Shown piece after piece: positions 2,523 through 62,541 of a stretch of 64,000 nt of DNA (position 1 is its first letter; each line of letters begins with the position of its first letter). This DNA is from Squalus acanthias. Taxonomy: Eukaryota. The stretch is from NCBI GenBank assembly GCA_030390025.1, contig CM059431.1:122824001-122888000 (forward strand). Reading direction: 5' to 3'. The translations under genes and the position numbers were made by a program. Below the pieces are notes generated by a model. That model saw only the letters and a program-made list of their open reading frames with translations. It was not told the DNA's origin and searched no databases.

Positions 2523-2529
2523 CTTGTTC

Positions 2530-7998: not shown

Positions 7999-8105
7999 GG
8001 TTATATTAACACTTGAAAGCTTTCAAAGCCAAACTTGTCACGATATATTTATAGTCTGTTGCTATCATTTGATGGTCATATAGTTTATCATTTGGTGTTG
8101 CTAAT

Positions 8106-13550: not shown

Positions 13551-13639
13551 GGCAGCGATAATTAGCGCCGGGCGCTAAGCTTTGCGCCCAGCCAATATTA
13601 GCGCCCCAAAAGGGGCGATACCCAAATTTTCCACCTAAC

Positions 13640-36409: not shown

Positions 36410-36627
36410 TATTTGGATTTTCAGAAGGCCTTTGATAAAGTCCCACATAAGAGGTTAGTGTGCAAAATTAAAGCACATGGGATTGGGGGTAATATACTGG
36501 CATGGATTGAAAATTGGTTAACAGACAGGAAACAGAGAGTAGGAATAAATGGGTCTTTTTCGAGGTGGCAGGCAGTGACTAGTGGGGTACCACAGGGATC
36601 AGTGCTTGGGCCCCAGCTATTCACAAT

Positions 36628-39046: not shown

Positions 39047-39746
39047 TAGGCCGAGAAGTTGGGGATCGTTGGAAAACTGCCGGTAAAATTGGCGGCCAAG
39101 GATAGCGCATTTTAGTACTGCCTGCTCATTATCATCAGCGTGGTGGTGACTTGCTAGTGCAACGCGCTCTTTGCAGTGATAATCTCAGAAGGAGGCCAAA
39201 GGTCGCCTCTGCCTCCAGCTCGCAGTGTAGGGGAGCAGGGAAGAAAGGATCGATCCGAACAGTTGCTGTACGTGCTCCAAAAATATCAGCTGCCACCCGA
39301 TGTTTATCGATTTGTTGTTTGCTTATGACATGAATGCAGATAAAAGAGATTTTATCACAGATCATTTTCAATCGTTTCAATGGAGTTCACCCATTGATTT
39401 ACTGACCAACAAACACTGTAGGCCTCCCGGAAAGCTGCCAGAAAATGCAACTCCCCCCGCTCCCCCCACCCCACCGCCCCCCTTCCCCCAGAGGCGGGAT
39501 CTGAGCCGGGGGGTGGGGAGCGATAGCAGGTGCGAAATGTGGAAGATTGTGGGACGTGTGGGAATGTCCAATTTCAACATGGATGCCTCATTATCATTTT
39601 ACTGATGGGTTTCACGACGCCAGTGCCCATGAGTGAGCGCGATGCTCATCTGCATGACACAATTTCATGTCGACTCTTTAAAAGGCCAATGCACAAATGG
39701 CATTTTGAGGAGTTGGGAGAATTGTAGGAGAGAAATATAATTTGAG

Positions 39747-41855
39747 ATGGAGTCAGCAAGGGCAAAGGCTGTGTCCCATTTTAAGGAGGCATCCTTTGAT
39801 GTACCGCTGGGTGCTGTCAGGGCGAGGAAGGACGTCCTATTCCCCAGTAATGGAAAAAAAACCTGCTGCTGTAACGAAGAAGGAGATGACTGAAGAGGTG
39901 AGCAGCAGGAGTGTTGTGCTCAGGACATGGATTCAGTGCAGGAAGCAGTTTAATGACCTAACCAGGTAAGGAAAGGTGAGCAGAGTTGCAGATTCACCCA
40001 CATCCTATAGTACACCCATCCCCTCCTCCCCCACCCGCTCTGTCTTGTCAAGCGTACTCCATCAACAACAACAGCTTATATTTTTATAGTGCTTTTAACG
40101 TAATAAAATGGCCCAAGGTGCTTCACAGGATTGTTATCAAAAAAAACTGGCACCAAGCTATATAAGGTGATGTCAGGACAGGTGACCAAAAGTTTGGTCG
40201 TAGAGGTAGGTTTTAAGGAGCATCTTAAAGGAGGAAAGAGAAGTGGATTACATCACTCCTCACACCCACATCAGTTTCATCAGCACCCATCATTCCATTT
40301 CAATGCACTTCCTCACCTCCCTTTCCTCCATCCGCCACTACCACTCACCCCAATCCTTATGTAATGTGATACTACCTCGGTCAGCTCCCCCGATTCTCAG
40401 CACACATCCTCAAATGACACTAGCAACACATCCTGAAATGATTGACAGTGACACTCGTGATGCATCTGCCTGATCTCACCCTCACCGAATGCACTGCATC
40501 CATTGGATGCACACGTGCCTTACAGACACTCATATGTTTGTTGTGCCCCCCTTGCAGGAGAGCAGATCACATAATACAAGGGAGAGGGAGAGGACCGGAT
40601 GTGGGCCACCACAGATCATTGAGTTGACCACCTGCAGAGCAAGAGGACCTGGAGATAAATGGGATCTCAGCGTCCCTAAGCATTGGAGATGCCGAATCTT
40701 GGACTTCACTGCTGCATGGTGACTGCATTAAATATCTCCGACCCACATCTCATACAAGACTAAGTCATGTTGAAGTGATTTCAGAACCAAATGAGATATG
40801 ATCACCTTAATCATGTGAATTTCAACATTTTTACCTCCCCATGACTTAAACATATCGGTCTCTTATCTCCTCCAGGGCCATCACCTGTAGAACAGCAGTC
40901 CGTGCCCTTTGCGGACGACGTTTCCTCAGAGGAGCTAATTCCCTCTGAGGGTGCACCATCACAGGACACATGCTTACCAGGCGCCAGTGCAGATACTCAC
41001 ACTTCAGTGGGTCCAGTTAGACAGCTAGGTAGGTTCTCACATACTGAATCACAGTTCACAAGTGAGCACAAGCAGACAGCGGTGGTAGGGAGCTGTAGAG
41101 GGTCCACGTCGCTGGGCACAGTCCTCTCCAAGTTCTGTTCAGCTGGACAGAGATGCTGAAACTCGGGGGCCATCATTAAAAAGGAGAACAATAGAGGGTC
41201 AGCAGAAAAGGTACTGGCAGTCCTGCCAAGCAAATTTTCCGCAATATTATAGAGGATGGTGGCGTCCAGCTCAAACATTTGTGGATTGATGTCACAAGCC
41301 ATTGCGAGGATGTCTTCCACGGCCTCCTCCGTGGAGCTTGAATTGCTGTACACTAATCAGTCTCTGCAGGCCCTGACAGCCGTGCAAACTATGGGTGACA
41401 ACATGGCTGCTGTCTTAAACAGGATAACAGATACCTTAACCGTGGCCTTACAACGTGTCACTGGTTTGCTCCAAGCTGCTCTCCTGCAGAGTGGCAGAAG
41501 TGATGTGCCACTGTCCCAGGAGAGGGATGATGGCAAAAGGGAACATGGAAATGGGAACTCCACTCAAAGCACTCCCACTTCTCACCCTTTGCCGCCACCG
41601 CCCGCCCCTCCCCCTCCACCCCCGCCCCCGCCCAATGAGTAACCCACATGCTGCCTCCTCTCCGAATGGCCGAGTTTTCCCCATGCACAACAGTGTTTGG
41701 CAGGAACCTCACGGGCTCCAACACCCAGAGGTCGGCAGCCAAGAGCATCTCAGCAGACAGAGCAGGGATCGAAGCAGCCTGTCTCTGCCTCTGCTGAAGC
41801 CAGAGGGGTTGCACCACATAGGAGCAGTAGGGAAAGAAAAAGAAAAGCATTGTAA
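39747..41855 (+). pseudogene. Harbinger Myb/SANT-like gene; exons 39747-39975, 40558-40718, 40876-41855
   Basis: EEVSSRSVVLRTWIQCRKQFNDLTR; canonical AG/GT sites; exon 2 ESRSHNTRERERTGCGPP; stops and frameshifts. Confidence 0.85.
40065..40243 (-). mobile_element. L2-type 3' tail inserted in Myb intron 1
   Basis: caacaacaacagcttatatttttatagtgctttt...ccaaggtgcttcacagg...ggtgaccaaaagtttggtc. Confidence 0.75.
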
Positions 41856-42131
41856 TTCACCGAGAGAATGCACATGGGTCTTTATCAAAATATTGTGTTA
41901 GTAAGTTGAATTTGTTTATTCACATAAAATGTATTAATTTTACCACTTTCCCATGTTCACTATTCTTGCATGGCTAGTGCCAACTCAGGTTTCAGTTGCT
42001 TGGTAATGAATGTGAAGACATGAATTGACTGAGACCAATTGGATCAAGACTGCTTTGTGTAAGTGGGGAGGGGGGGCGGGGGCGGTGGGAGGGGCGGAGA
42101 TGTGATCGTTACTTTGGTCCAGTGTGAGTGA

Positions 42132-43332
42132 CTAACTGATCCTTCAAGCTATTAGGGCATCTCTGGCATCCCTGGCATCCTGAGCAACAATGTAATCGGC
42201 GGCTGGTCTGACGTTGGGGACCCCATCTTCCTCCTACTCCTCGTCCTCCTCCTATCCATTGGAATCCTCATCAGATGAAGAATGTTGAGTGGTTTGCTCC
42301 TCCTGCACCTCTAGTCCTCGCTGCTGCGCTATGTTGTGGAGAACGCAGCGCACCACGATTAACTTAGAGACCCTCACTGGCACATACTGAAGGTGCCTCC
42401 AGACCTGTCCAGGCACCTGAAGGGCATCTTGAACGTGCCAATGGCTTCCATGATCGCTTGATGGCACATCTGGTTGTCATATGGCTCACATTGTAGTGCT
42501 CTTTGTTTTCATTGGTGAGGTTCCTCAGAGGTTTCATCAGCCAGGTTTGAAGGGGGTATCCTTTGTCGCATAATAGCCAGGCCTTAAGAATGGTTTCAGG
42601 TGCGAGCAGGTTGAGGATGTTGGACTGCCGCAGTATGGAAGCATCATGGCAGCTCCAAGGGAATCTGCCACAGGCCTGCATGAACCTTTTCTTGTTGTTA
42701 CTCACCAACTGAACATTGATGGAAATACTTCCCATGCGCTTGATGAATATTCCTGCTTGCTGTGGTGGTGCTCAGATTGCCACGTGTATGCAATCAATGC
42801 CAACTCGCACCAGTGGGAAGCCAGCCAGAGACATGAACCTGAGTGCCCGCTCATTCTGACTAGTGTCATCACAGGGGAAGTTTACATAACTCCCAGCTCC
42901 GGCAAACAATCCACCTGCCTTAAGCATTTATGTGCAGCCAACTGCGATACCCTCAATATGTCTCTGGTAGCACCCTGGAAGGAACCAGGGGCAATAAAAT
43001 TGAGAGCAATGGTGTTCTTTTACAGCCACTGGTAATGCATGGCCACCAGGTCCAGCAGGTAGCAGGCCTTCTTCGAGGAGGCTGCAGATGTCTGAAGCTA
43101 CCTGACGTGACAATCTGACTTCGGAGTGCTGCTATTCCGAGAGGTCAAGGGAACTGAACTGCTATCGGTACACCCTGTTAGGTGGGTAGCGCATCCAGCG
43201 AACTCGACCCCTCTGTTACTCCTCTCTCTGTTGTCCACCTGCAGCTCCCTCCACAGCATATCCTTGCTGCTGCTGCTGCTGATTGCCTTCCTCATCTGAA
43301 GTCCAATCAAAAGCAGCCATGACACCACCCAT
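42132..43332 (-). pseudogene. HARBI1-like DDE transposase (DDE_Tnp_4 family), disrupted
   Basis: Motifs RYPPNRVYR, ALPVAVK, GSFQG, GIDCIHVAI, SINVQLV, FPWSCHDASIL, LCDKGYPL, YNVSHMTTR and CVLHN spread across frameshifts. Confidence 0.92.
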
Positions 43333-44989
43333 CCTGATGCTCTCTGTGTCAACACCTCCAAATAAGTCTCTCACAACAAATATTCTCACCAAACTGTTTA
43401 CCAGTGGGAACTGAGAAAGCAGCTGCGAGCACTGATCTTTTATCCATATCGGGACTCCTGACCGTTAACCATCCCATAAAGTGCCGTTCAATCTTGCCTC
43501 TGATTTACTGGCAAGTTTTGAAACCTGTGCTGGAGGCGTTCATTTCAAATTGCTGCCAAAATCTCAGGAAAGGAGGTGCATTGAAATATTCTAACGACAG
43601 GCCCACCTCTCCAGAGCAGGTTAGTGGATGCCACGATATCTGCCGCTGTTAAAATGGAAGCGGGCGCGCGTGTGGCGGGTTGGGGTCGCTTTTCGCAAAT
43701 TTGACAATTTAACCTCTCCAAACCCTCTCCTACCTGTCGTGGGGGTTAAAATTCCCTCTGTTACTTCTGAGAACACTGTGTGGGTGTTTCAGTCATCTGT
43801 AATATTTTAGCAGGGCCAGACTTGAGAATTACTGGAAGGCAGTTATCAATGTGTGCTAACATCACCAATTTTGCTGACTACACTGTTTTCTACTCCTCTT
43901 CTTCAACCTCTTTTACTATTATTGCTGTAATATGAGCCTCTTCTTTATCCTCCTTTAGTACTGCAAATGTAGGCAGCATGCAACAGACCATGATTATTTT
44001 GGCCACCTGTTATGGGCTATAAACAGAACCTTTACTTTAGCATCCCAATGGTGTGCTCTAGTGTGATTTTAGTTGAAGCATGTGCCTGATTATGCTTACA
44101 TTCCACTGCTATTTGGGGCTTTCTGACTGTAGTCATTAGCCATGGCTACAGAGAATAGACCTTGCCTCCGAATAGTCATCTATACAGTTTTTATGAACCA
44201 TCAAATACTGGAGGCACTATAGACAGCCATATAATGAATGCATCATGGATGCTTCTTGGATAACTGGCATTTACTTATATCATGATTTTTCTGTTAGACA
44301 TTACCTCCACATTAACTGAATGGAAGCCCTGTCTGTTCATGGCCAATGAGGTTGATGTGAGGAGTCCTTGGGCTAAACATTGAGTAGCGCCCCAAATTTG
44401 GTAAGTCCTGAGAGGGGGGATTGCAGCAGGTTACAGGGAAAGGGGTTGATCATGACTCCTGTGGATTCGGAGGAGCACTGTTGCTCCAATGAAGGGTTTA
44501 TTATTTTTAGAACTGACTTACCCTTGAGATTAAAATTGGCTCCAATACCTTAGTGGCCATTGCACCTGAATTTAATAACCCCTCATTAATTCATCTCCAA
44601 ATAAATCGTAGAAAGAAAAAAGTAAGAAAGACTTGCATTTATATAGTGCCTTTCACGACCACCGGACGTCTCAAAGCGCTTTACAACCAATGAAGTACTT
44701 TTGGAGTGTAGACAATGCGTAGAGCATTATGCTAACTCCGAAAGGAATTCCCACTTGTTGGCTATAGCTTCATTGTAGCAGCAAGCAACAATAGAAAGTC
44801 TTCTAAAAAACATTATACAAAAATGATGCAATCGACAGCAACAGAAGTACTTGATTACCACAAGGGCTCAAGATACAAAATAGCCTTTGGCTAATACAAT
44901 GCAATAAAGCATCAGTGCTTCATAATCACAAAAAAGTTTGCAATCAAATTTTCCAACAGAAACTTAGCTTTAAGAATGAAACTTCAGCA

Positions 44990-46533
44990 GGCTAGCAAGG
45001 GCACAGAATGTACTCTGGGTGGGGGACTTCAATGTCCATCACCAAGAGTGGCTCGGTAGCACCACTACTGACCGAGCTGGCCGAGTCCTGAAGGACATAA
45101 CTGCCAGTCTGGGCCTGCGACAGGTGGTGAGAGAACCAACACGAGGGAGAAACCTACTTGACCTCATCCTCACCAATCTAACTGTCGCAGATGCATCTGT
45201 CCATGACATTATTGGTAGCAGTGACCAAGTCATTGTGGAGATGAAGTCCCGTCTTCACACTGAGGACACCCTCCATGGTGTTGTGTGGCACTACCACTGT
45301 GCTAAATGGGATAGATTCAGTACAGATCTAGCAGCTCAAAACTGGGCATCCGTGAGGCGCTGTGGGCCATCAGCAGCAGCAGAATTGTATTCCACCACAA
45401 GCTGTAACCTCATGGCCTGGCATATACATCACTCTACCATTACCATCAAGCCAGGGGGCCAACCCTGGTACAATAAGGAGTGTAGAAGAGCATGCCAGGA
45501 GCAGCACCAGGCATACCTAAAAATGAGGTGCCAACCTGGGGAAGCTGCAACACAGGACTACATGTATGCTAACAAGCGGAAGCAGCATGCTATAGACAGG
45601 GCTAAGCGATCCCACAATCAATGGATCAGATCAAAGTTCTGGCGTCCTGCCACATCCAGTCATGAATGGTGGTGGACCATTAAACAACTAACGGGAGGAG
45701 GAGGCTCCATGAATATCCCCATCCTCAATGATGGTGGAGCCCAGCATGTGAGTGCAAAAGACAAGGCTGAAACATTTGCAACCATCTTCAGCCAGAAGTG
45801 CTGAGTGGATGATCCATATCAGCCTACTCTTGAGGTCCCCACCATCACAGAAGCCAGTCTTCAGCCAATTCGATTAATTCCACGTGATATCAAGAAACGG
45901 CTGAGCTCACTGGATACAGCAAAGGCTATGGGCCCCGACAACATCCCGGCTATCGTGCTGAAGACTTGTCCTCCAGAACTAGCCACACCTCTAGCCAAAT
46001 TGTTCCAGTACAGCATCTCTCCGACAATGTGCAAAACTGCCCAAGTATATCCTGTCCACAAACAGCAGGGCAAATGCAACCCGACCAATTACCGCCCCAT
46101 CAGTCTACTCTCAATCATCAGCAAAGTGATGTAAACTGTCATCGAAAGTGCTATCAAGCAGCACTTACTCACCAATGACCTACTCACCGATGCCCAGTTT
46201 GGGTTCCGCCAAGATCACTCGGCTCCCGACCTCATTACAGCCTGGTCCAAACATGGACAAAGGAGCTGAATTCCAGAGGTGAGATGAGAGTGACTGCCCT
46301 TGACATCAAGGCGGCACTTGACTGAGTGTGGCATCAAGGAGCCCTAGTAAAACTGAAGTCAATGGGAATCGGGGGGTCAACGCTCCACTGGCTGGAGTCA
46401 TACCTAGCACAAAGGAAGATGGTTGTGATGGTTGAAGGTCAATCACCACCACATTCTCGAGGGCAATTAGGATGGGCAATAAATGCTGGCATTGCCAGCG
46501 ACGCCCACATCCCATAAACGAATTAAAAAAAAA
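44990..46533 (+). mobile_element. Non-LTR retrotransposon of a second CR1-group family (endonuclease end plus RT start; internal deletion to the 3' tail)
   Basis: GDFNVHHQEWLGS, PTRGRNLLDLILTN, KAMGPDNIP, NYRPISLLSIISK, QFGFR and LDIKAA. After about 46444 it jumps to the 3' UTR and A-rich tail. Confidence 0.92.
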
Positions 46534-49500
46534 TTATAACGATTGTAGCACTGGTCTGTGTACCCAGTCTCGCACCTCTTGCATTTCACCTTCAGAAACT
46601 TCCAAAATAGGAGCTATATTATCTAACCTATTTTGATTTACCTATTTGTGCAGTATCTGTTAAATGCAATCTTTCACTTTTTTTTAATCAAGCTGTAATT
46701 TGTATATTTAATATTGACATAAAAAATCTTCCTTTGAGTGCAAAATGCGACCTTTACTTGGCTACCTGTCCATCCCTGTAAACATTGAAGTATATATTTT
46801 CTAACTCCCAGCAACAACTGCAGTGGGATGTTACCATGGTACCAGTATTCACTAGCTTGGAATGATTTACTGTAAAAGCACTTATCCTCTCACTTAGATT
46901 TATAAAAGGTCAGTCTCCTGTCAGTAAAATGTAATTGAAGATTTATAAGTCTAGATAATTGAACTACACTGACTAATAAAATGAAGGCATTATACAAAAT
47001 CACCACACACTGGCATGACTTAAAGGTAATCTCAGAGGACACAGGTGGTTCAGCTGTGTTTTGGATCCTAGATTCTTACCCGATATTCCAAAATGGCTTG
47101 CTGATTGGCTTTCAGAGGATTAAAAGGATCTAACAGAAAATGAGTTTGTGTGTTGCTCATCCCTGTGGGAGGCGATTCACAGGATTGACATGCTGTCAGT
47201 GGCCAGCTATAAATCCTACTTTTGAAGGTACAGGACTTACAGTCATACGGGACATGGTGGAGGTGTTTAATAAAACAACTACACACCAAAGTTTTAGAAG
47301 AGACAACACATTGTTTTTAAGTGGGAAAAATAACGTAGGGGACAACTTAGCAACTGACAGTGTTCCACTTCAACTGATTACTATTCCTAAGTGTCTGATT
47401 TGAAAGTATTTGATTACCACAAGGCCCCAAGATACAAAATCGCCTTTGGCTAAGCTCAGATTTCCCTTTAGAACCCAGCTATTCTGTTTGAAATGGCTAC
47501 ATGCATTGTAGACTACAATGAAAATCAATAGTGAAAAGATGTACTATTACGGTTTTTGAATTCAAACATTACCTCATATGTGATTTATTTTACAAAATGT
47601 GCTAGTATCTGAAAAGGTCGAGTGCTTTATTCCCATTCAGCCACACATTTGTTACATCACAATTGAAATATGATTTTCATCTATTAAGCTGCCTGTTGTT
47701 AATCCCACAATAATTGTTTGTGCTGTAATATTTTGGTAATACTAATGGATCTCCCGCTGTGTTGCTCATGGTAATCAGTTGACATACTGCTTTATAAGGA
47801 TGTGAGTGCTATACATGCAAAGTACAATGGGGATAATTTTGACTTTGTGCAATAGTGTAAAACAGGCAATAGCGAATCGGCAGCCCATTTTATATCTCTC
47901 CAGAGTTTACAATGTCAACTAAGTCGCTTATTGAAGTACTGACTCATGTGGGGGATAACAGAAAGAGAGCAAAAGCTTCCCCAGATTTAGAAAGATAAAA
48001 ATCAGACATCAAAGGTTACTCTTGCACATCCCCCTGCAGTTGGGTGCAGATGACACTTTTCATTGTATTTCAAGTAATCTGATATACAGTGAGTCACAGC
48101 GTTAGTATTTCGGTACAATTCTAGTCTTACTGGGTCTGACCAGCTTAAAAATAAAGCAATTTAAAAAATAATGTAGACAATGGTAATTGCTATTCATCAT
48201 TAAATGCATAAGATTAATAAGTTTGGTGATTGCAGCTAAGTGACCGCACATCACATATCTTAATTCATAGCTAAAATGCTGATATAATTTTCTGAAAATG
48301 AAGATTGATAGCCTTACAGCAGACTGCTTACTCATCTTGGCACAGAGAATTATTCGTACCATGGGAGGAATTGAAAGGAATGGAAAATAACAAACTTCAG
48401 AACAGAGGACCGAAGATTCTCAGCACTGGCAGTGTTTACTTTCTAAATAAACAAATCAAATGCAATTTTAATTCGTTACACTGAAACTTTGCTCCAAAGA
48501 TACGATGTTACCTTTGGCGAAACTTCCAAAGATGTTACTGGACTAATTCCCCCTCAGTTGCTTTTCCAAAATGGATGAGTTGTTCCAGGATGCATTGTCA
48601 CACTTATTTTTGTATGATCATTTTCATAATTTCCCACATACATCACAGCTGTGGAATGTGTTGACTTCATCCATTTTCCAAGAGATTACAAATGACATTC
48701 ATTCAGAAATTAAGTGGCAGACCTTCATCCTTTCATTTACGAATAAGAGCATGGCAGGATGAAAACACTTATCACAGATTTGGACACAAGGGAGCCAAAT
48801 TGCCTCTGGGCCTGCTCTGCCAATAGAAGTCTGGTGAGGTGGAACTCCTGGCCATCCATTGATTGCGCCCTGACCCTGCCCCACTTCCGCTGGGCACCGT
48901 GCCATTTACAGCACTGGTGGGGCACCTACTTGGGGAAAAGGAAGTAGTTGCATCATAAAGGTGCAGGGAGGGCCATGAGAACAGAAATAACATTTTCTTA
49001 AATCCTCACTTCCGAGTACTGCCAGCTTAGGTAATGCAATCAATCACGATGTTATCGAGGGGATTGCCAAAAACAGTATTTTACATTTAATTTCCTCCTC
49101 TGAAACCTTAGTAAGGCTGGCACCATGGGCAACATCATATGCCTGTCCACACTTCCACTGGATTTTTGCCAGGCTTTAAAAGGGGCAGGGACTCAGTATA
49201 ACCAGGTATCACTCCTAATTCTGTCCCAATGATTTTCCATCCATTAAAATGAATAGACAGAAAATAATGAGCAGCTTCAGGAATTAAGGATTAATCTCCA
49301 GGACATTGCTACGAGCAACCCAGGAGAAAAGTCATAGGGACATTAAAAAAATGTGTGTGTGATTTTTTTTCATTTTCTTTGAACATTTATTACTTTTAAA
49401 AATATTGGAGATGGGATAAAAAGGCTGTTTGACTGAGAGTGCAGCATCATTCAGTTGGGTAATTAAGAGTCTGTTTGCTTTCCAATTGGTGCGGGAAGGC

Positions 49501-50828
49501 GGAAACGCAGCGAGGATTGGCAGGTCAGGCGACCAATGATCGCTTGCCTCTCCAGCAGCGTCTAAAGGCAACTCTCGGAAGTGGGCGGGGGGTTGACGAT
49601 TACAACTGTGGGGACGGCGTTGCAGCTCTGTTCCTTCTGCCTCCACTGGAAGGTTTCTTTTTAACTTTCAATTTTTTTTTGAAAACTTACACTCGTTGGT
49701 GGCCGCAGAGGCTGATGAAGAATTCTGAACGGGGCAAGCCTCGCACCTGTTCTGTTCATTGTAAGCAAATGTTCCAGCGCAGCCCGGGACGCCTAAAAAA
49801 TAGGCCCAACGAATATAGTAGTAGCCCAACGTACGCGCAGATTGGGCGCAAGCTGTCCCACTGCTAAATTTGTCAACTTTAAGTTCGTTATATGCCTGGA
49901 AAAGGGCGCAAAGCATACCCATTTCGACCGCGTTATCTTTTTTTTTCACACACACGCACACGCAACATGCAGTGTTAGCAAGGAATCAGTACTTCTGTGA
50001 ATTATAACCTCAGTCAAATTACTTCATGCTACTTCAAGAGACTCTGTCCTATTAATATTGTCCCCAAGCTAAATGGTTATCAGTCGGGAAAATAATTGTA
50101 ATGCAGCATACTGCTAATTTTGCTCTTGTATCATACCAGTCCATAGAGCCAGTGAGAGGAATTATCAAAACATCAGCGACATTGCAAGTAATACAATGTT
50201 ATAGCATAATTTTAACTCCAGATCAAGGGCAATACAACCTGGGGACATTATAAATCTAGAAACTTTCATTTTCCATTTACAGTTCTGCCAACTTCAAAAC
50301 ACTGAAGAATCTTATGTTGTCACTTTGCCACGTCACTGTATTGGGTATGAAAAGGGGCACCATTTGTACAGAAACGTTCCTAGAGGTTTAAAAATACAGC
50401 TCTTACTTGGTTATTTTTTGATGAACATAAAACAAGTGTTTTTATTAAAAAAAGAACATGAGCAATCACATCTTCCACAGGCACTGCAGGAATATATTGT
50501 GAACACTTGAAATAATGTATTCTAAATGAAAGGAATGCAAACCTTGGCGGTAAAAAGCAATTCCTCCTAATTAATAGAACCCAACCATGTTATAAATTGA
50601 CTTTTAATATTATCTTCTCTTTGTAGTGAGAAATTGAGGTGAGGGGGTAAGGACCATTGCTCAGATACCACAACAGCTGAAAAGAGTAGCAGAAAAGACA
50701 AGGTAAATTAAGAAGTAATGATATAGGTACCAAGCTGGTATTTCAAAATACTGAAGATGTAGGAGGGAGAAAACATTGAGGGAAGTAAGGTGTCCCATTG
50801 TATTCCTGTACACTTTAGAGGATCATTG

Positions 50829-51335
50829 TTTTTTATTCATTCCTGGGATGTGGGCGTCGCTGGCATTTATTGCCCATCCCTAATTGCCCTTGAGAGGTGG
50901 TGGTGAGCCACCTTGTTGAACCACTGCAGTCAGTGTGGTGAAGGTACTCCCACAGTGCTGTTAGGGAGGGAGTTCCAGGATTTTGACCCAGCGACGATAA
51001 AGGAACGGCAATATATTTCCAAGTCAGGATGGTGCGTGACTTGGAGGGGAACTTGGAGGTGATGCTGTTCCCATGCGCCTGCAGCATTTGTCCTTCTAGG
51101 TGGTAGAGGTTGCGAGCTTGGGAGGTACTGTCGAAGAAACCTTGGTGAGTTGCTGCAGTGCATCTTGTAGATGGTACAAACTGCAGCCACGGTGCGCCGG
51201 TGGTGGAGGGAGTTAATGTTTAAGGTAATGGATCAGATGCCAATCAAGCGGGCTGCTTTGTCCTGGACGGTGTCGAGCTTCTTGAGTATTGTTAGAGCTG
51301 CACTCATTCAGGCAAGTGGAGAGTATTCCATCATA
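50829..51335 (-). mobile_element. 3' end of the same LINE family as 44990-46533
   Basis: The 3' tail gggatgtgggcgtcgctggc...atttattgcccatccctaattgccct is the reverse complement of 46459-46515; frame reads SFIVAGSKSWNSLP. Confidence 0.9.
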
Positions 51336-51789
51336 TTGTCTTGCAATGCGTACTTGCAGCTGGTTGGAATCTTTGGCTAAATCATAATTCAATACTTGCT
51401 GTAAACCAGATTGAAATATAATCAGAGCTTGACATTACAGGGTAGATTCCTTCACAGGAGTTACTGCAGTTGTGGGTGAGAAATTGCTTCAAAGCTATTC
51501 CGCTGGCTATATGTTATTCCCACCACTACTGGTATTTCTCACCAGAAACGATGGGGGGCATACAATATATATCCACCAATATATGAGTCGGCATATTAAA
51601 ATAATATGTAAATTACGTAAATACATTACCCAAAGTATATTCTGTCATTTGCTACTTCTTTGCCTGATCTGAAGGAAAAGGGATACTTGTCATTGTGGGT
51701 TACTCTTCTGTATATTTATTAAAATTATTTTTTCAGAAACAGTAAAAACACATAAAAGTGAGCTAATCAAACAGTATTGTAAATGGTGA

Positions 51790-52130
51790 AGCAAAAACAG
51801 AAACACTCAACGGGTGTAATTTTGACCTTGAGCAATAGCAAATCAGCAACCCATTTTACATCTCTCCCCATTTTTATTTCCTTTGCCGATAATGGAAATA
51901 AAAATCAGGAGAGATGTGAAACAGGTTACTGATTCTCTATCACCCATGTTACACTATCGCACAAAGTGAAAATTACCAGCAACATCTTTGGACAAAACAG
52001 TCTATTGAACGTTCTGAGTGCAACCCTTCATCAGAACTGAGGAGAAAAATTGGAAAATAAACAGCATTTCAAGAGGAACAGAACAAAGGGAAGGGGAGGA
52101 AAAACAGGCACGTCCACACAAGAGGAGGTA
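51790..52130 (-). mobile_element. Older Penelope-type terminal repeat, split by a fold-back MITE
   Basis: agcaaaaacagaaacactcaac...aacatctttgga...aacgttctgagtgcaacccttcatcagaactg is homologous to 7869-7998. Confidence 0.55.
51812..51980. mobile_element. Fold-back MITE, TSD AAC; half copy at 47829-47902
   Basis: AAC at 51809-51811 and 51981-51983. Arms acatctctccccatttttatttcc / ggaaataaaaatcaggagagatgt. Confidence 0.8.
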
Positions 52131-52254
52131 TGGGTACAATGACCTGTAATATGCTGAAGCAAAGGCTGGAAATTATTAATTGACTGAAGTAATATTAACA
52201 TGAGATGACAGGAGGAAGCATAATAAAAGAAATTAAAGACATAATAGAGACAAA

Positions 52255-54030
52255 GGCCAGAATTTTGCCGTGCAGAGAGAGTGGGATCGGAGGCGGGTCA
52301 GCTGTGAAATTGGAAATGATCGACAGTGGGTCAGGAACCCGCTGTCAACCCGCCTCCACGCTGGTCTCTCAGGTGTTGGGTCTGTCAGCGCTGAAGGCAA
52401 TTGACATCATTAAATGCATTGTTAACAGCCAACTAAGAATTATTTTAAACTTACCTTTAGATATTTAGTGGTCACCAATGGCTTCCCCGCTGCTCAGCTA
52501 AGGAGGTCGGGTGTTGAGTCAGCATGGGATCATTTACTAACTTGACAGCTGCAAATGGTCTATAAAAGCTCCCGTTTCATAGGTCTTCACTTTCCAAGCT
52601 CAGAAGCTATTGCTTACTGCATTTGGAAGACAGATTGAGCTTTATGCAGCTTGTAAGTGTTTGGAGCAAACTCTCTATCCAGTGTTACCTCATTAGAACA
52701 AACTCTCTTACCATTGACAGATCGCTTCTGTCATCTCAGCCTCACCTGCCATCTATTCCATCAGCATCAGTGCCCTTGAAAAAATCTCACCTTGGTCCTC
52801 AGAATCCCACCACAATCAGCCCCGACACAAGCAGCACCAGGCACACCAACAGCACCAACATCAACACCAATCTTCTCCACAATCAACTGATGCTGCACAG
52901 GACACAGGACATTAGCACCCGACTACATTGCTGCCCGGGATGCAAGGATGGCCTCACCCTGGCCAGATTTACTTCACTTGATGCTGTACACCCTGGCTGC
53001 CACATGATGCACCAGGTTGGCACCACCCCACACTAATACCATAAAGCATCCTTACAATGCCCAAGCCATTCCTTTCACACTCATCACCATTGCAGGGGTG
53101 GGGGTGGGGGGGGTGGGGGTGGTGGTACCGTTATGTCTCACCATTCACTGCAACTCACTAAGCCAATTCCAAAGGTGCACACAAATCTGTCTAAGAATGC
53201 AAAGTGTTGAAAGTAAAGGTTTCAATGTTTGACACCACATTAACAGAAACTTCACATTAACATTGTATAAAACACCCAAGTGCCTACCCTTGTGTATTGT
53301 TAGTTGGTATGCTTGGACTAGGATGAGGGTGAGTATGAGGGGTGGCTAGTGAGATGGGGAAGTAATAATGTAGATAGAGAGGGATGGGTGGAGGTGCAAG
53401 GTAAGTTGGTGTGAGTAAGGATGTGCAGGAGTAGGGTAGGGAAAGCCGAGTGATGGGGATGTGATGAGTGGCACAGCAGGATGAGGTTGAGTGTGGCTTG
53501 GCAGTAACGTTTCGTGATCTACTGAGATCATTGAAAGGTTTGCGCCACTGCAGCCTGGTCCTCCTGATGACATCCTTGCTTGTGTCCTCCTGTGCAATGT
53601 GCAACCAGGCTACGTTGGTCTCCTGGGGAGGTCTCTTCTGCCCATGGGAAGGGAAGAGGACCTCCCTGCATGCTGTGACTCCCTCCATAAGCATATGGAG
53701 AGAGTCATGAGAGAGCCTGGGAGCAGCCATACACATTTGTGCAGTGCTTGTCAGTGTTTGCAGCACCTCAATGCTGTAGAACACTGACAGCACAACTGTC
53801 AAAGTCAATTTGGGCATGGCCCCTTTAAGGAAACCGGCTGATGATGCGTCATCAAATGATGCCATCAGACCCGCTTCCTTTTAATTGGCCAAGAACCTCG
53901 CTGGGCGGGCTTAACAAACCCAATCATCGTAAAATCCCTTCAACAGAGCGGGATGGTGCAGGCAGCGGGCTGGCACCGCGCTATCGACCCTGGCCGCCCC
54001 AGACCAGCCTCGGTAGGCAAAATCACCGCC
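52255..54030 (-). mobile_element. Internally deleted Harbinger, copy 2 (inverted relative to 14627-16376)
   Basis: Ends ggccagaatttt / aaaatcaccgcc. ORF 53284..53865 contains an open Myb/SANT exon 1 (AAPRLSHDSLHMLMEGV...AWLHIAQE...WRKPFNDLSR). Confidence 0.88.
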
Positions 54031-54574
54031 AATGAATGTGTGAATAGCTGAGGCTGCACAGAAGAAGCTGGTAAAGTAGAACAAGATCCATCTGACTGAA
54101 AAGAAGAATAAAGCAGGCCAACACTGAGGGGGCTCAGGGTCACATGTACAAAGAGGATGGAGGTGTTTGGCAAAGTGGCCACCTAATTTGAGTTTGAGCT
54201 TCTTTTTCAACACTCAGAAAATGCATCCGAGATTATACATATATAATGAAGCAACATCAGTGTAAAGTGATTCGACCAGCAATGGACCTCACATTATTAA
54301 ATAGTGAGATCAGGAAAACCATACCTGAGTGGAAAGCCTTCAATGTGAGACAGAGATGGAGTGTGGAAGAATGCAAAGTAAAAGAGAATCAACTGGCAGA
54401 TTAAACTCAGAGATCACTAATGCCTTTATAAAAAAGACAATAAATTATTCCACCAAAATCACTAGTCTGTAAGTCATACTATATAGTCCTGTAAAAGGAT
54501 GTGATGGGAGATGCTCTGCACTCTGGGCTATCATGTTATTCACAGCGCTCCAGGAAGGAACTCTGTTCTAAATT

Positions 54575-54648
54575 GTACTTCATTGGCTGTAAAGCGCTTT
54601 GAGATGTCCGGTGGTCGTGAAAGGCGCTATGTAAATGCAAGTTGTTAA
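54575..54648 (+). mobile_element. Deu-SINE 3' tail fragment (another on the minus strand at about 44620-44712)
   Basis: gtacttcattggctgtaaagcgctttgagatgtccggtggtcgtgaaaggcgctatgtaaatgcaag. Confidence 0.8.
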
Positions 54649-55581
54649 AAAAACAATTTGATCGTGCTGCGTAGAATGGGCACCTAAGAGTCTAATATGG
54701 TGGGTGGCGTGCGCGCTCTCGTTCTGTGCTGGAAGTGTGCTGCCAACCATATTGGTAAAGGCTCCTCTGAATGTGTCTAGGGCACGTAACTAAAACAGCA
54801 GTAGGCCCTTTGCAATTTTTTTCAAAATTGGGACCGCTGGAGGCTGCCATCAGAAAGGTAAGTTTGAACATTTTTGCTTTCCTTATTGTGCATGAGTGCC
54901 CCTCTCGGCGCCACATTAAATCCGTGGTCCACTGTCGGCCACTGCTCACTCCCCTCCTGATTTCCTCACGCCACCTCCCGTGCTTTACCAGCAATCTCGG
55001 CCGGTGTCCGAGTCGGCTGATCTTGCTGACCCCCTTCCCCGAGACCCGCGAGCTACTTCTGCGGCGTCCGCAGTTCGTCGATAATAAGAAAATGAGGGCG
55101 ACAGACCAATTTGTGTGATCCTGCTGCCAGCCTCATTAGGCACGTGCAGCGTGCCCTACTCCGGGATCGTGCCCCAATTCGGGAGCAATCCAGTTCCTAG
55201 GCCTCGATGTCAAAAGAACCAGTTCTGATTTAGTTGCACAAATCCATAATATGTTCATATTGAGCTTTTTTCCAAAACATCTAGAGGGGTAAATTGTATA
55301 ATGTTTTAAAATGGGCACAGAGATTGTGATGCACTACAAACCTGCGCCCGTTCATTGTGATGCAGGGAGCACGCTAAATTTGTGCTGCCTGCTGTTTTAA
55401 ATGATTGTTGCGTGCAGCCAGCGCTACCTGCACTGTTGATTAGCTGCACGCATCAACAGGGGGCCCGATATCACGAGTGCCTCGCGCTACTTAAAGGCAG
55501 TCTGCACCTCTTTAGGGGGGTTTCTTGAATAGGTGGTGGTAGTCCTTTGTGAGCTGAATCTGTGCTGTCAAAGATTGAACA

Positions 55582-57350
55582 ATGGCTGAACGTGCGAGAG
55601 AGCGTGCACCAAGGTTTTTTGATAATGCGCTGGAGGCCTTGGTGGAAGAGGTGGCATGGAGTAGAGATGTCCTCTATCCGTAGAGGGGCAGGAGGCAGTG
55701 GCAAGAATTAGCAGTGGAGGTCAATGCCAGGAGTGTTGCTCCTCGAACAAGGATGCAGTGCAGGAAGAAGTTGAATGATCTCACACGAGATGTCAAGGTG
55801 AGAGACTTTATCTTCAAATGGCACATCCTACCAGGACAACCACTAGCCCCATCCTCTGCTCAATTCACTACACCTCCATCACTTACCTCCCAACAATCTC
55901 TATCAATCAGTACTAAACCCTAACATTCAACTGACCCTCACACACTTAGCACTGTAGCAAGCCTCGCACTAACAACACACAGCACGCACACACTGGCAGC
56001 TATTTAACCATGTCAGCCACATCACCCAAACATATTGCAGGACACACACTGACACACTTCCCTCTTTCTTGCTGAAAAAGGTGGCGCATAACAGAAGGCA
56101 GCAGGAAAGAACTGGGGGAGGACAAGTGCGCCTCATGTTTTAACACCCATGGAGGAGAAAGTGCTGACCATCATTGGAAGGGGCATCACTGAGGCCGTGG
56201 CCACTGGTGGAGCTGAAGCGATTCATGATGAGGATATCTGCATACCTAATCCTCCTTCTCTCATACCACTCCTCCCTCATCCCTCAATCTCTTCTGAGTG
56301 AGAAGCTGCAGAGGGGGTCAGCACCCGCTTCTTACTTTCTCCTCTCCCCTCACCACAACCCAACCCTTGTCCCTTTTTCATTTCAGATACCCAGAAACTG
56401 GAATTTGCCCAGTCAGTGGAGGAAGGGGAAGAAGACATTGAAGATGAAGATACACCTTCACTCGATCTTACACTCGCAGCCACCAGCTCAGAGATTGAAG
56501 CTTCATGTATTTTAGAGGCTAGGATAGAGGAGGTATGTGCACCTGGTGAGAGACCGGGCACAAGTGCACAGGAGCCAGGGCGGGCGGGGTGGGGGGGGGG
56601 GGGGAAAGGATAGCGCAGGTGCCAGATCGCCCAAGGGCGAGTTTGCCCAATAGATGAGGACTTTGATGAACCAGGCTACAGAAGAAGGCTTTGCACAGAG
56701 CTTGGAGCCCATCCTTTCCAACATGGAACGGGTGGTCACCTGTGGAATTCGGCATGATGCAGCATCTGATAGCCGATGACTCAACTTCTATTTCAGCAAA
56801 AGCAGCTTCCACCAAAGTTCTAAGTGCTACAGTGGAAGCTCAGACGGTTGCCATGCATGCTCAGACTGCTGCCATCATGGCTGTGGATACCAGTGTTCAA
56901 AGGGTCTTCCAGGCTGTCACAGCATTCCATCAATCTGTTCTCCAACAGATTACTAGGATTGCTGAGGCGCCATCCCAGGGAGAGTGCCAGTGACTCCATG
57001 GTGCATAAACCTGCTGCTTCTCATTTTTGTCCACCCCAGTCCAACGCCGGCATCTCCACATCATCACTGTCTCAGGTTGACAGCATTCGTGCTCCCACCT
57101 CTGCTACTCCACTAGTGCCTTTGCTGTTTCCATTCAGCCAGCCCAGCCCAGACTGCTGCAGCCAGGCCGAGATGGTGCAGTCTGAAGCCGGGCCTTCTAG
57201 ACCCAGAGCTGATCGAGGTCGTCCTCTGAGGCCATCTGCAGTCTCCTTAATTAAAGGTCAGTAGCCTTCTACCACCCATGCTGCAGCTGCTGTGGAAGTG
57301 CCTCGTAGGAGCATAGGAGAAGTAAAGGTACACGGATGACAGGCACTAAG
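55582..57350 (+). pseudogene. Harbinger Myb/SANT-like gene; exon 1 55582-55797, exon 2 from about 56075, exon 3 from 56387
   Basis: MAERARERAPRFFDNALEALVEEV...WQELAVEVNARSVAPRTRMQCRKKLNDLTRDVK|gtgaga; exon 2 KKVAHNRRQQERTGGG; internal stop and a mutated acceptor. Confidence 0.85.
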
Positions 57351-57541
57351 TGAATGCACAAGGATGATTTGTTAATGTTGTATGCATTATGTCATGATTT
57401 AATTTATAAATTTTGATCAGAATGTGCATTTTCTGCTGGCTTTTATTTATTTTTGTTGGAAAGAGGACGATGTAATGGTCAGTAATAGAGGAACGGTAAG
57501 GAGTGTGGGACTGTTGGTGAATGCGGAGTTGTGGGTTGAGG

Positions 57542-58693
57542 TTACTGGTATCGCTTATGAATTATTTGATCATGTAGAGCCCGGGCAGAAAGGGGCTGTC
57601 TACATTGTATCCTCCCTTCCTATTTCAGTTCCTCCACTTGCTGTTGCATTTCCTCCTCTTCCTCTTCCTCATGCTCCTGCTCCTCAGCTTCTCGCCTGAT
57701 AGGTGGTGGCAAGGGCTGTTTCCTCATAATAGCCAGGTTGTGCAGCATGCAGCATACTACCACAAATCTTGATACCCGCTCAGCTGTGTACTGCAGGACT
57801 TCTCCAGAGTGGTCCAGGCAGTGGAAGTGTTGCTTGAGGATGCCGATGGCGTGCTCTATAATGTTCCTTGTGGCAGCAGGGCTCTCATTGTCGGCCTGCT
57901 GTGCAAATATGCGTGGGTTCCAGACCAGAGTCATGAGCCATGAGCAATGGATAATACTTGTCGCCCAATAGCCAGCCTTTGACTTGCCATGGTGGGTCAA
58001 ATGCAGTTGGCAAAGAGGGCTGCCACAGAATGAAGGAATCATGACTACTGCCAGGATAACGGGCATTGACCTGCATGATGCATTGCTTGTGGTCGCACAC
58101 CAGCTGCACATTGAGGGAGTGGAATCCCTTTCGGTTCAGGAAAATGGTCAAGTTCACATGAGGCATAAATAAAGCAATGTGCGTTCAGTCAATGGCGAAG
58201 CCTGCAATCTGAGCAAACCCTCATGCTCACTCTGCCTGCTTGTCTCTGGCAAGAGGGAATGAGATGAAGCTGTCTCTCTTTGTATAGAGGGCCTCAGTCG
58301 TCTCCCTTATGCAGCAGTGTACTGCAAGCTGCAAGATATTGCATATATCTCCAGCAGCAGCCTGGAAGAAGCCAGATGCATGTTAAGAGCCACGGTCACC
58401 TTGACAGCCACAGGCTTTGAGGTTGCAGTTGTGGATGCAGCAGTTGGCAGATTTCAGTCACAACCTCTTTAGTGAAGTGAAGACATCTCAAACAAGTTAC
58501 TTCCAGACATGCGTCGCTAAAGTTGAAGTAAGAGAATTGCTTCCAAAAGACCCTCGGCGGATATGGCCTCCTGCTGAAAGCCCTTCTCCCTCCTCCTCTT
58601 CCCTCTTCTAGTAACTTGTCCTGCTCTGCGTGGCCTCTCTTCATTCTCCCAGTGATGCTCAATTCCAAGAGGAAGGCTTACCAGGCGATGCAT
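57542..58693 (-). pseudogene. HARBI1-like DDE transposase, disrupted
   Basis: RRPYPPRVF, FLNRKGFHSLNVQLVCD, ARYPGSSHDSFIL, WLLGDKYYPL, TRNIIEHAIGILK and VCCMLHNLA across frameshifts. Confidence 0.93.
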
Positions 58694-58808
58694 GTCTGGA
58701 AGTACTGTAACTTGTTTCAGCACAAGTATTTAAACCACCAAAGATGTACTTCAGCACCAGCCAGACCACTCCCTGTAGACTACCAAAACTTTAGAGAAGT
58801 ATAGGAGA

Positions 58809-59690
58809 TGTAAGAAATCATGGATTGAAAGAAATAATGTTCAGTTACGGGTTCCCTAGATAAGCAGTTTGTCTAAGTTGATGACACAGAAAGATTCCAG
58901 TCATGTCAGAAAAATAGCGGTACAGAGATTGAAATGCAGTCAGGAACAAATGGTTGAAGTGTCAGCGAGGTCAAATAACAAACACCAAAAGACAAATGGA
59001 AATGATAAGAGGATCGTAAAATGCAAGAAAACCCAGGATGATGATACCATAGCTAGACAATAAGGAGCCACAAAGTCATAAAATGTCCTTAAAGAAACAT
59101 AACAAAACATTCCTCAGAAAGATAAGAGAAAGGCCTCATCAGCCATGCAGAAAGGGGCAGTGAGAAATGTCTTCCCGCGCCACACTTGGATTATAGATGA
59201 TTGACACTAGATAGATCACAGCCCACTGAAATAACTATAAATATAGAGGGTTGAGAGAGGGAATCAGACAGCGAAGGCCAAAGGCTTCTTCGAGATGGAA
59301 ATCAATGCTGGCTCAGGCCTAACACCTTGACTAAGTTTAGCCTCTGAGGTGGATCAATGCTGGCTTATGCCGAACACCTCCAACAGCTCGAGGGACGAAT
59401 CAACAAAAGTGACTGCTGTTACTGGCTGCAGAGACCCGCTGACCCAAGACCTCCATGCTGTCTCATCAGACATCTAACCAATCGTCCGTCCGGTCGTGGC
59501 ATTCCGATTCGGGAGTTGGAGATCGCTCTCTACTGTCACGGGTTGTATGTCTATTATACTCAGCTTAAACCATATGTAATATCTGATTATGCTTTAAAAC
59601 TGTAGCTCTTTAATAAAAAACCTTGCAACTCCTAAGACCATTTGGATAATCTGTGTGTGACCTGTGATCCTAAACTTACTGAAAGCTACA
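58809..59690 (+). mobile_element. Solo LTR inserted in the Harbinger transposase 5' region
   Basis: TGTA...TACA ends; TATAAA at about 59237; AATAAA at about 59612; non-coding. TSD not clean (gaga versus aaaa). Confidence 0.75.
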
Positions 59691-61775
59691 AAAATGCGTA
59701 GAATTGCACCAGTAGCCAAAAGAAATAATCCAGCAATTAACCTGTAAGTGGTTCATGATCCCTTTAAGTAGCGCTGGTGTGGGGTCCATCATGCCATTTA
59801 ACGTCGTGTTCAGCTGTAAGCTGGAGTGTGGCATTCGAAACAGGCAATGCTGGCGTCAAATCAGCATTGCACACTGATTGATGTCATAGTCTGCCTGCTC
59901 TACATGCTGCTGGCGGTCGTTTGATGCGCGCACGCAAACCCCTTTACCAAGATGGCGTCAGGCGCATTTCCCGTCGGAAGTGTATGCGCACATCTCAGAC
60001 GACATTTTCGTGGGTTAGGAGGCTGATTAGCGTCTACAAAACGGACGCTGCAAAGCCCAGTTTCTCCCCATGAATTTAGGTAGATTACGATGAAAACAAT
60101 GCTTGGCACCACGTGACGGGAATACAGCTATAGGTAACATGGGCAAGTCGTTCAATTAGCTGACTCAACTGAGCACTGTTCTGAATGGAAATGTAATCAA
60201 CATTATGCAACAGAATTACCTGGCAGAAGATAATAAAATAAAATATGAAATAATCCATCACAAACATCCAGCATAAGGGTGTTGTTGACAGCAATGGTGA
60301 ACTGGCTGGATATTATTTTATCCAGAAGCAATAAAGCATTTGAAGGACTTTCTCCACTACTTGAATGTCACAGTACTTCAGAAATACAGGTTACCTAATG
60401 AACACGAGCCAAAGACATTTCAAATACTTTCAGCTCAAAATGCCAGTTATAACAGTAATATTATGAAGGGCTGCTGGCTTTCTGTAACAGCACCACAAGA
60501 GGACAATATGATTTCAGGTAAAACCACTGCCAAGACTTTACACAGCACTTCATCCTAAAGATTTAGGAGATCTGTTGCCCTGTGTTTGGGTAAGATGTTG
60601 CTATCCTTGGCTCTGGAGTCTGTATCAGAACTTACACTTTGGGCGTGGCGGTAATTTTAACCTCACCCGACCATTGGGAAACTGACAACATCGGATGCAA
60701 CACTGGTTTTACACTCCACCCGATTTCACTCGCCATTGAAGTTCCACTCAATCCCATGGGTTTCTCGCCCAGCGAGTTAAGCTAAAATGTCCCCCTTGGA
60801 GTCACAAAAAACAAGTGGAGAAGCTATTAATTGAAGTGAGCAGCCTATTTTTAAAAGCTTTTATTATAACAAGGCTATGAAGATAGCTCAAGTTGAGAGG
60901 AAGATTACAATTTTCTCTTTGATCTTCAGCTTAGACGAAGAAGTTGTCAAATGAGATAGCCGTTTATTGACAGAGCAATTGTATCTCAAAGCATTTGAGT
61001 GTCCTGGTCACATCTAGTATCACAGTTCTCTCGCTCTTCATGAAGAAAAACATCAAAATAATATGTCAAATTTTGGGGCCTAGTGCAGTGACAAGAATTA
61101 TAAAATCATTTGCCCCAGAAAAACTATATTTGGTCATTTTCAGCCAAATGTTCACAAAAATTACATTATCGTTTTTGTACAGGTACAGTAAATTTTCAAA
61201 ATATTAAATTCTCCCTTGTATAAAATTTGAGGCATAACATTACAAAATTCAGCTATATTTTGACTTGCTAAAAATAAACCTTAGTTGCTGTTTACTTGCC
61301 CCTTTTAATTCATATTTCTGCTTTCAGAATGTAACTCTCCACAGATTTCTACCTACAATAATAGCCTATATACATCAGCACGCATGGCTTTTTATGTCCT
61401 TGTTTTTTCATGCTCTAATTCACAAATACTGACTTCTGAGGCAAAATACTAACCCATGGCTGTTTCATTAAAATAATTTAGTATTGGGCTGTCACATACA
61501 TTCAAATAAACGCAAAAACTGCTTTTGCTTCTAAAATGTATACATTAATTTTGTCCAAAAAGTTACTGCTTCTGTCTTAAAAAATATAATTAAAGATTTT
61601 ACAAATAAAATATTTTGCAAATAAAATCACAACTATTTATATAATTAAATATCTTGCAATAAGCATGTGTCTGACATACTGAAAATGGTTGCGTTCTGCC
61701 CCTCTCCCTTTCAAAACTGCCATTAACACCCTTCCTTAAAGCAGCCAACCTCAACCCCTGTGTCCTTTCAAACTA

Positions 61776-62541
61776 CAGGAAACTTTTGTTTATCCGGCAC
61801 CCAAATACAGGAAACTCTTTATTAACCGGCACCGACGGGACCGGCGTGGTGCCGGTTAATCAAAAAGTCCGGATAACGGAGAGTTATATCTCCCAACTTA
61901 CGAGAGCCCCGTACACATTGACATGCGCCTGCATTCGGAGCTCCGTCTCCCCGGGGACCGCCAGCTGACCATCTGTCGTGTCCGCTGCCTACCCGGGCTG
62001 CACATTCCCCTCCCAATCTACACGCTCCGATACAAGGCAAACGCCTCGGGGTTTTTTTTAAAGTTAATTTTAAACGAGAGATGAAGGAAAACCCCGGTTA
62101 CCTACTCAAGAATTTTGCCGGTTAAGAGAGATTTCCGGATATTTGGGTGCCGGTTAATAAAGAGTTTCCTGTATCCGGAATTCTCACTTAACCGGCAAAA
62201 ATCATCCTCTGAAAACTCCTCTCAAATAACCGGCAATGTTGCCGAGTCGCAGTCGAGTCTCCGCGAACGGCGAGTACTCCGAAAACTCCTCTCAAATAAC
62301 CGGCAATGTTGCCGATCCCGAGTCCGCGTCCGCGAACGCCGATTTAGTCAGTAGGGGTAGTTTTCAAAAGTGCCACTACTCGGCCTCCTGGCGCTGTCGG
62401 AAGTATACTGCACATTTCTTGATTTATTTATTTTTCTTTGTTAAAAATAGCCTCGGTAGATATAACTCTCCGTTATCCGGTACTTTCGATAAACCGGCAC
62501 CACGCCGGTCCCGTCGGTGCCGGTTAATAAAGAGTTTCCTG
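61776..62541. mobile_element. Tc1/pogo-like MITE (outer), TSD TA, same family as 36055-36409
   Basis: TA at 61774-61775 and 62542-62543; caggaaact / agtttcctg ends; 62404-62541 aligns with 36272-36409. Confidence 0.9.
61808..62171. mobile_element. Tc1/pogo-like MITE (inner, inverted), TSD TA
   Basis: Perfect 26-bp TIR caggaaactctttattaaccggcacc; TA at 61806-61807 and 62172-62173. Confidence 0.92.

Follow-up and report, generated by a model that had tools for sequence, protein, structure and literature searches.

Two decayed PIF/Harbinger transposons of different families in a 64-kb shark window, and candidate domesticated relatives in sharks and rays

The stretch studied here is a 64,000-nt window of shark DNA (Squalus acanthias, contig CM059431.1 of assembly GCA_030390025.1) in which two transposons, E1 (39049..43759) and E2 (55286..60069), lie within about 20 kb. 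We read them as independent, old insertions, now dead and decayed neutrally, of two different and very abundant Harbinger families, a reading to which we give a probability of roughly 0.9. In each element a three-exon Myb/SANT gene on the plus strand faces an intronless DDE_Tnp_4 transposase on the minus strand, and the converging 3' ends of the two genes are separated by 200-280 bp. A sequence-only reading had claimed this two-gene Harbinger layout and a clear sequence difference between the elements, and both claims are borne out: the layout by Pfam matches and collinear frameshift-aware alignments, the difference by identities of 40% between the transposases (130/323 aa) and 34% between the Myb proteins (105/313 aa), and by separate clades. 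The span that it gave, 39490..60069, is right at its far end, 60069 being the right end of E2, while E1 most likely begins near 39049. The parts of E1 are as follows.

39049..43759, plus strand: element E1, a decayed autonomous-type Harbinger of 4711 bp, its left end being less certain (39436 is the other candidate)
39747..39975, plus strand: E1 Myb/SANT exon 1; ATG at 39747, frameshift at ~39861, stop at 39967, GT donor at 39976; 41/80 aa identical to P0145
40558..40718, plus strand: E1 Myb exon 2; AG acceptor and GT donor, frameshift at ~40630; 22/48 aa identical to P0145 residues 80-127
40876..41855, plus strand: E1 Myb exon 3; 2 stops and 4 frameshifts relative to P0145; 155/311 aa identical to P0145 residues 135-465
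42132..43332, minus strand: E1 transposase pseudogene, intronless; 5-6 stops, 4-6 frameshifts

The reference P0145 is an intact 465-aa protein of Heptranchias that matches all three E1 exons in order, with GT/AG at the four splice sites; relative to it the E1 Myb gene carries 3 stops and 6 frameshifts. The E1 transposase (43332-42168) matches its three best references at 52-55% identity and has the triad letters D, D and K, the third of which adjoins a frameshift. The parts of E2 are these.

55286..60069, plus strand: element E2, a decayed autonomous-type Harbinger of 4784 bp including an insert; ends GGGGTAAATTGT / GGGGAGAAACTG, 6/12 matching
55582..55797, plus strand: E2 Myb/SANT exon 1; stop at 55681, 8-aa deletion in the Myb domain, GT donor at 55798; PF13873 30.2 bits; 43/72 aa identical to P0148
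56075..~56233, plus strand: E2 Myb exon 2; TG acceptor in place of AG, GT missing where the donor should lie, frameshift at ~56114; 37/52 aa identical to P0141
56387..~57339, plus strand: E2 Myb exon 3; AG acceptor, 2-4 frameshifts, 1 stop; 37-48% identity to P0159/P0148
57542..58693, minus strand: E2 transposase pseudogene, intronless; 3-4 stops, 4-5 frameshifts; D-D-E letters kept
58745..59718, no strand assigned: repeat insert upstream of the E2 transposase, LTR-like (long terminal repeat-like; TG...CA, AATAAA), ~0.9-1.0 kb; boundaries tentative

The E2 Myb gene has in all 2 stops, the 8-residue deletion, 3-5 frameshifts, a TG acceptor at intron 1 and no GT donor at intron 2. For E2, the description of the Myb gene as spliced therefore applies to the ancestor and not to the copy itself, in which two canonical splice sites are lost. 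The E2 transposase (58693-57548) is 55-61% identical to its references (227/376 aa to P0007). The insert is repetitive by depth and contains short tandem repeats; its ends were placed by a single TG...CA pair that has a direct repeat of 5 bp, a match that can occur by chance in that scan. Without it, ~400 bp lie upstream of the transposase ATG, much as in E1 (427 bp).

Both elements show two marks of the PIF/Harbinger (PHIS) superfamily, a transposase of the DDE_Tnp_4/HARBI1 type and a second, Myb/SANT gene. Against cut-offs of 24.8 bits for PF13359 (DDE_Tnp_4) and 21.7 bits for PF13873, PF13359 scored above threshold in 3 of 5 open reading frames (ORFs) taken from the transposase regions of E1 and E2, and the read-through pieces of both transposases reached 55.0 and 42.9 bits. 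Both transposases are collinear with full-length shark and ray proteins in the frameshift-aware alignment, with no intron-sized gap. The Pfam and frameshift-aware check proposed in the sequence-only reading thus came out positive for both transposases and, with PF13873, for E2 exon 1; exon 1 of E1 is split by its frameshift and stays below the cut-off (3' half 17.1 bits, no score for the other half), so that its Myb gene is recognized by collinearity with P0145, which itself passes PF13873. An autonomous, active element would have both ORFs intact, and here all four genes bear stops and frameshifts.

Its protein matches mark the window as shark DNA. In a first transposase search (281 candidates) all six matches were elasmobranch proteins, and the best 120 of 499 transposase matches comprised 98 named chondrichthyan, 14 bony vertebrate and 8 unnamed entries; the Myb alignment, used in a word-indexed search, matched none of 4,732 candidates, and HMMER with the Myb exon-1 pieces of the window matched 98 proteins. 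In transposase trees of 137 and 74 rows (FastTree and a quick IQ-TREE), from which true HARBI1 was left out, the E1 and E2 transposases fall into separate starred clades (97 and 99). The rows nearest to E1 are P0038 (Heptranchias), which carries a long-branch warning, and a group of intact shark proteins described below as group A; the clade of E2 includes 8 Heptranchias gene models and 1 from Pristiophorus. Judged from these protein comparisons, the assignment of E1 and E2 to the PIF/Harbinger superfamily, as members of two different families, is supported.

That two such elements are oriented alike, and occupy the same place in related organisms, might suggest that they function or cooperate as a pair, or form a domesticated cluster, retained within 20 kb. 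We consider this hardly credible: each of the four genes carries many lesions, the proteins are only 34-40% identical and belong to different clades, the same window holds many further Harbinger pieces, and any old fixed insertion would be shared by close relatives. Because of those further pieces a pair of elements within 20 kb is unremarkable, and on the reading as independent insertions the proximity of E1 and E2 would reflect a high density of Harbinger elements in the genome, with no joint system.

The superfamily has short terminal inverted repeats (TIRs) that begin with A/G and a 3-bp target-site duplication (TSD). The ends of the elements resemble GG-N4-AATTTT on both sides, and the TIRs of E1 and E2 match at 5-6 of 12 letters. 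A regular-expression scan for such ends gave 17 matches where 9 are expected in shuffled sequence, which is weak by itself. Local alignment of the left and right subterminal regions scored 27 in E1 (shuffle maximum 41) and 35 in E2, over a 49-column match (shuffle maximum 33). At its right terminus E1 can be aligned with a further Harbinger terminus, that at 883 (score 99, shuffle maximum 34). Of its two candidate left ends, 39049 fits an A-N-N-Y flank and 39436 does not, a choice made partly after the motif was known. [quoted passage not shown]

A target pattern A-N-N-Y-[3 bp]-R-N-N-T fits 11 of 13 flanks of seven elements in the window (background 0.134, P about 1.5e-8), in a test that leaves out the E1 left end and whose element ends were fixed from the GG-N4-AATTTT shape before the pattern was known; both E2 flanks fit. 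The flanking triplets themselves agree poorly, being CTA/GTT in E1 and AGA/ATG in E2 (one letter of three in each), and a perfect 3-bp TSD occurs in only one of the seven elements, a 169-bp MITE at 51812-51980. This mismatch in 6 of 7 elements, together with the two candidate left ends of E1, could be explained if E1 or E2 were a chimera of ends from different insertions, formed by recombination between copies. Such an origin seems improbable to us: the palindromic target pattern is present on either side of E1 and of E2, the 4.7-kb lengths agree with the averages of ~4.1-4.5 kb given in PMC4482050, and the mismatch is general in the window and not peculiar to E1 and E2.

Several points nevertheless weigh against our reading of E1 and E2 as simply decayed insertions. 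Their TIRs are short and degenerate; the left end of E1 is not firmly fixed; the TSD mismatch exceeds what simple decay predicts and is without explanation; and in one RNA-like run, made up of contigs, none of the 15 splice joints listed, from some 7,500, lies over the elements.

The copies themselves are highly repeated. Four of 23 listed sequencing runs were aligned to 40400-60300 at 80% likeness, a stretch that begins to the right of the E1 left end. In run X5 the summed contig depth, which is no copy number, was 4,314-19,898 over E1 and 4,779-107,869 over E2 against 3-20 in unique bins, and reached 0.4-1.8 million over an element at 52255-54030 that holds Myb exon 1 only. This contrast, which for E1 and E2 amounts to hundreds or thousands of times the depth of the unique flanks, marks all three as highly repeated. 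In the RNA-like run X21, a 352-nt contig related to Myb exon 3 of E2 (56855-57246) had a depth of 1475, far over its neighbours; it is perhaps a related copy within a highly expressed transcript.

In all four runs the commonest differences from related contigs are A>G and T>C, and the observed/expected CpG ratio in the E1 and E2 genes is 0.31-0.38, as would be expected of methylated, decaying copies. Single-copy-depth contigs of organism B bridge both ends of E2 (records 22 and 23) and one of organism D bridges the right end of E1 (record 25); because three element ends are bridged in this way, the insertions predate the splits from organisms B and D. The unique flanks of these contigs are 4-9% divergent; the rate given in PMC10587355 is expressed per generation. 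The families had been called lineage-specific, which stands at the elasmobranch level, given the 98 chondrichthyan entries among the best 120 matches, and falls at the species level, as the three ends are common to organisms B and D.

The families as such might still be active, with intact copies elsewhere and with E1 and E2 as only the decayed members of living families: the annotated proteins of Heptranchias include an intact Myb protein like that of E1 (P0145), and some contigs align at 99%+ likeness, a figure taken over the whole stretch with its long interspersed nuclear elements (LINEs) included. Gene models of the E2 clade are however truncated (231-336 aa), and 51-72% identical to one another, a star-like pattern such as an old burst leaves, and we hold continuing activity to be unlikely, if the least so of the alternatives weighed here.

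On the reading of E1 and E2 as old, independent insertions of two very abundant shark PIF/Harbinger families, now dead, their ancestors would have been two-component cut-and-paste transposons. By analogy with Harbinger3_DR, a spliced Myb/SANT protein would have bound the ends and imported the DDE transposase, which would have excised the element and reinserted it at a palindromic A-N-N-Y-[3 bp]-R-N-N-T site; neutral decay after insertion would then account for the stops, frameshifts, CpG loss, lost splice sites and nested insert. In the zebrafish system, binding to the ends and import of the transposase are the work of the Myb-like protein, and both proteins are required (Sinzelle et al. 2008, via PMC9392472 and PMC9710019); its target consensus is AAACAC-CWG-GTCTTT, and its ancestor has already been rebuilt by consensus (PMC3016246). 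Rebuilding the ancestors of E1 and E2 in the same way, as had been suggested, is plausible given the abundance of copies; it is an established route, for which these two copies are nothing special.

Harbinger3_DR, a NuwaI element, resembles E1 and E2 in its DDE transposase and Myb/SANT gene, in ends that start with GG(G) and in its size of ~4.5 kb, and its target consensus contains the A-N-N-Y ... R-N-N-T pattern of the window flanks. The differences are that none of the seven window elements has CWG or TWA as its central triplet and that the window copies are dead; teleost transposases also stand on tree branches separate from E1 and E2. Harbinger3_DR itself was compared by description. TWA and CWG (NuwaI) TSDs define two groups of the superfamily (Han et al. 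2015, PMC4482050). Among the 14 flank triplets of the seven elements, TWA occurs in none, as against the PIF/Harbinger group in the sense of Han et al. (2015), and CWG in none, as against NuwaI, whose palindromic target context is nonetheless present (11/13 flanks). Because both group tests failed, we assign E1 and E2 to the PIF/Harbinger superfamily only, and file them, by analogy, as elements that would work like Harbinger3_DR and not as members of NuwaI.

Other vertebrate systems offer further parallels. Harbinger-Snek of sea kraits (PMC8437027) and the Myb-Harbingers of Pleurodeles (PMC5741667) comprise two-ORF elements with single-ORF and short non-autonomous derivatives, to which, by description, the window's 1.78-kb Myb-exon-1-only family and MITEs may be likened; those expansions are young or expressed, whereas E1 and E2 predate the splits from organisms B and D. 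HARBI1, NAIF1 and MSANTD1-4 (PMC9392472, PMC9710019) are of the same two protein types as the E1 and E2 genes, and the shark relatives are labelled 'putative nuclease HARBI1' and 'MYPOP-like/NAIF1-like' in the databases, but the window genes are pseudogenes inside transposon ends. As dead members of a known superfamily the two copies matter little alone. They do fill a stated gap: PHIS elements are listed as absent from sharks in PMC4482050, and PMC9179366 reports none in elephant shark and urges a check of other cartilaginous fish, though later genome papers already name PIF-Harbinger among whale shark and grey reef shark repeats (PMC8455134, PMC12498223) and their supplementary repeat tables may already list the E1 and E2 families. 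Harbinger is not mentioned in bioRxiv 2025.06.08.657570.

Intact relatives of these transposases are of greater potential interest. Among the best 120 of the 499 matches are six groups (A-F) of intact proteins labelled 'putative nuclease HARBI1', each with starred support of 100, which we defined from look-ups of 20 transposase/Myb clusters picked from the hit lists and of 10 Myb clusters, and from the trees of 137 and 74 rows.

Group A (P0016/P0018): 7 galeomorph sharks, 81-98% identity, third triad position K/R in 7/7; sister to the family of E1
Group B (P0017/P0020): 5 sharks and rays, 87-97% identity, triad intact in 3/5
Group C (P0003/P0004): 4 rays, 83-99% identity, E replaced by K/Q in 4/4; within the wider clade of E2
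Group D (P0010-P0015): 6 sharks and rays, 71-84% identity, triad altered in 6/6
Group E (P0030/P0039): 7 sharks, E replaced by K in 7/7
Group F (P0032/P0040): two clusters at 90%, together 13 named sharks, skates and rays, with G for the first D in 13/13

Overall, identity within the 'HARBI1'-labelled groups is 71-99%, and clusters at 90% span orders. Members of groups A-F include XP_041068236, XP_041039126, XP_062914350, XP_041068359, XP_041064058 and XP_041046722. Intact ORFs kept across distant hosts and following the host phylogeny are what domestication would leave, and this is what groups A-F show: branching inside A, B, C, E and F agrees with the host phylogeny, D being the exception in that Heptranchias falls outside rays plus galeomorphs. 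By contrast, the E2-clade gene models show the truncation and low mutual identity given above, and about ten lesions per gene are seen in the fossils, which organisms only 4-9% apart have in common. E-to-K occurs also in about ten transposable-element-like gene models and in E1, so it is not proof of domestication, and it is probably a CpG transition. Two near-identical group-A entries on one contig of S. torazame bear on single-copy status. A further group, G (Heterodontus/Scyliorhinus), was removed from the candidates at 60% identity.

No bony-vertebrate protein fell into groups A-F, either in the hit list (best 120 of 499) or in the trees, whereas HARBI1 spans jawed vertebrates (PMC9392472), and in the open literature, with subscription papers outside the scope of the search, we found no paper describing the elasmobranch genes of these groups. 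On balance, these protein comparisons lead us to favour, by a modest degree, the view that groups A-F are real, undescribed elasmobranch domestications, at least five or six genes, distinct from HARBI1. If so, several unannotated elasmobranch genes would stem from the shark Harbinger radiation that left E1 and E2, recurrent Harbinger domestication would extend from the jawed-vertebrate base into the shark and ray lineage, and the cartilaginous fish, once listed without PHIS elements, would be a hot spot of it. By analogy with the plant ALP1/HDP1 and insect DPLG pairs, the domesticated proteins, together with Myb partners, would serve as non-cutting chromatin adaptors.

Candidate domesticated Myb partners were also seen, among Myb-like proteins of the P0142 cluster, P0146 and the P0151 cluster. 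In a ray cluster, the members from Hypanus, Hemitrygon and Mobula (stingrays and devil rays) share 96-99% identity, and the proteins of whale shark and zebra shark are 95% identical, with 56-65% identity among the ray cluster, whale/zebra shark and Heptranchias. The ray cluster is not adjacent to the group C genes, because the two lie on contigs of different size. Outside the cartilaginous fish, a HARBI1-like protein of 350 aa whose triad is broken (P0087, P0271, P0100, P0104, P0118) is conserved in turtles (a 33-member cluster), caecilians and Bombina, possibly a tetrapod domestication distinct from HARBI1. Two database models, P0006 from Pristiophorus (523 aa) with a Myb-DDE_Tnp_4 fusion and P0138 (682 aa) with three tandem Myb domains, could be prediction artefacts or chimeric genes.

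The 64-kb window as a whole contains four transposase remains and, besides E1 and E2, at least five Myb remains, as well as MITEs. Its further Harbinger pieces are listed below.

30.7-31.1 kb: transposase fragment
43893..44340, minus strand: a third Harbinger transposase, an older fragment just outside E1; 6 stops, 1 frameshift; PF13359 34.3 bits; low copy, bin depth 45-424
2.5-4.6, 12.6-13.4, 14.4-17.1 and 53.5-53.7 kb: Myb remains
52255..54030, minus strand: non-autonomous Harbinger of 1.78 kb with Myb exon 1 only; PF13873 22.0 bits
14627-16376, plus strand: second copy of the Myb-exon-1-only family, ~1.75 kb; 87% identity over 1371 bp (14661-15994)

The depth of the Myb-exon-1-only family nears that of LINEs, which makes it extremely abundant. 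An element at 12188-14091 carries Myb exons 2-3 on the minus strand, and this element and that at 14627-16376 are apparently nested in introns of an older Myb gene (exon 2 at 14408-14518, exon 3 at ~16480-17040). At 883-9611, paired Harbinger termini with ~200 bp of subterminal inverted similarity (73%) enclose LINE inserts and, on the minus strand at 4555-2528, an E1-like Myb gene. Finally, a repeat family at 36049-36420 and 61770-62550 has 29-bp perfect inverted arms, starting with TACAGG and ending with CCTGTA, putative Tc1/mariner- or pogo-like ends.

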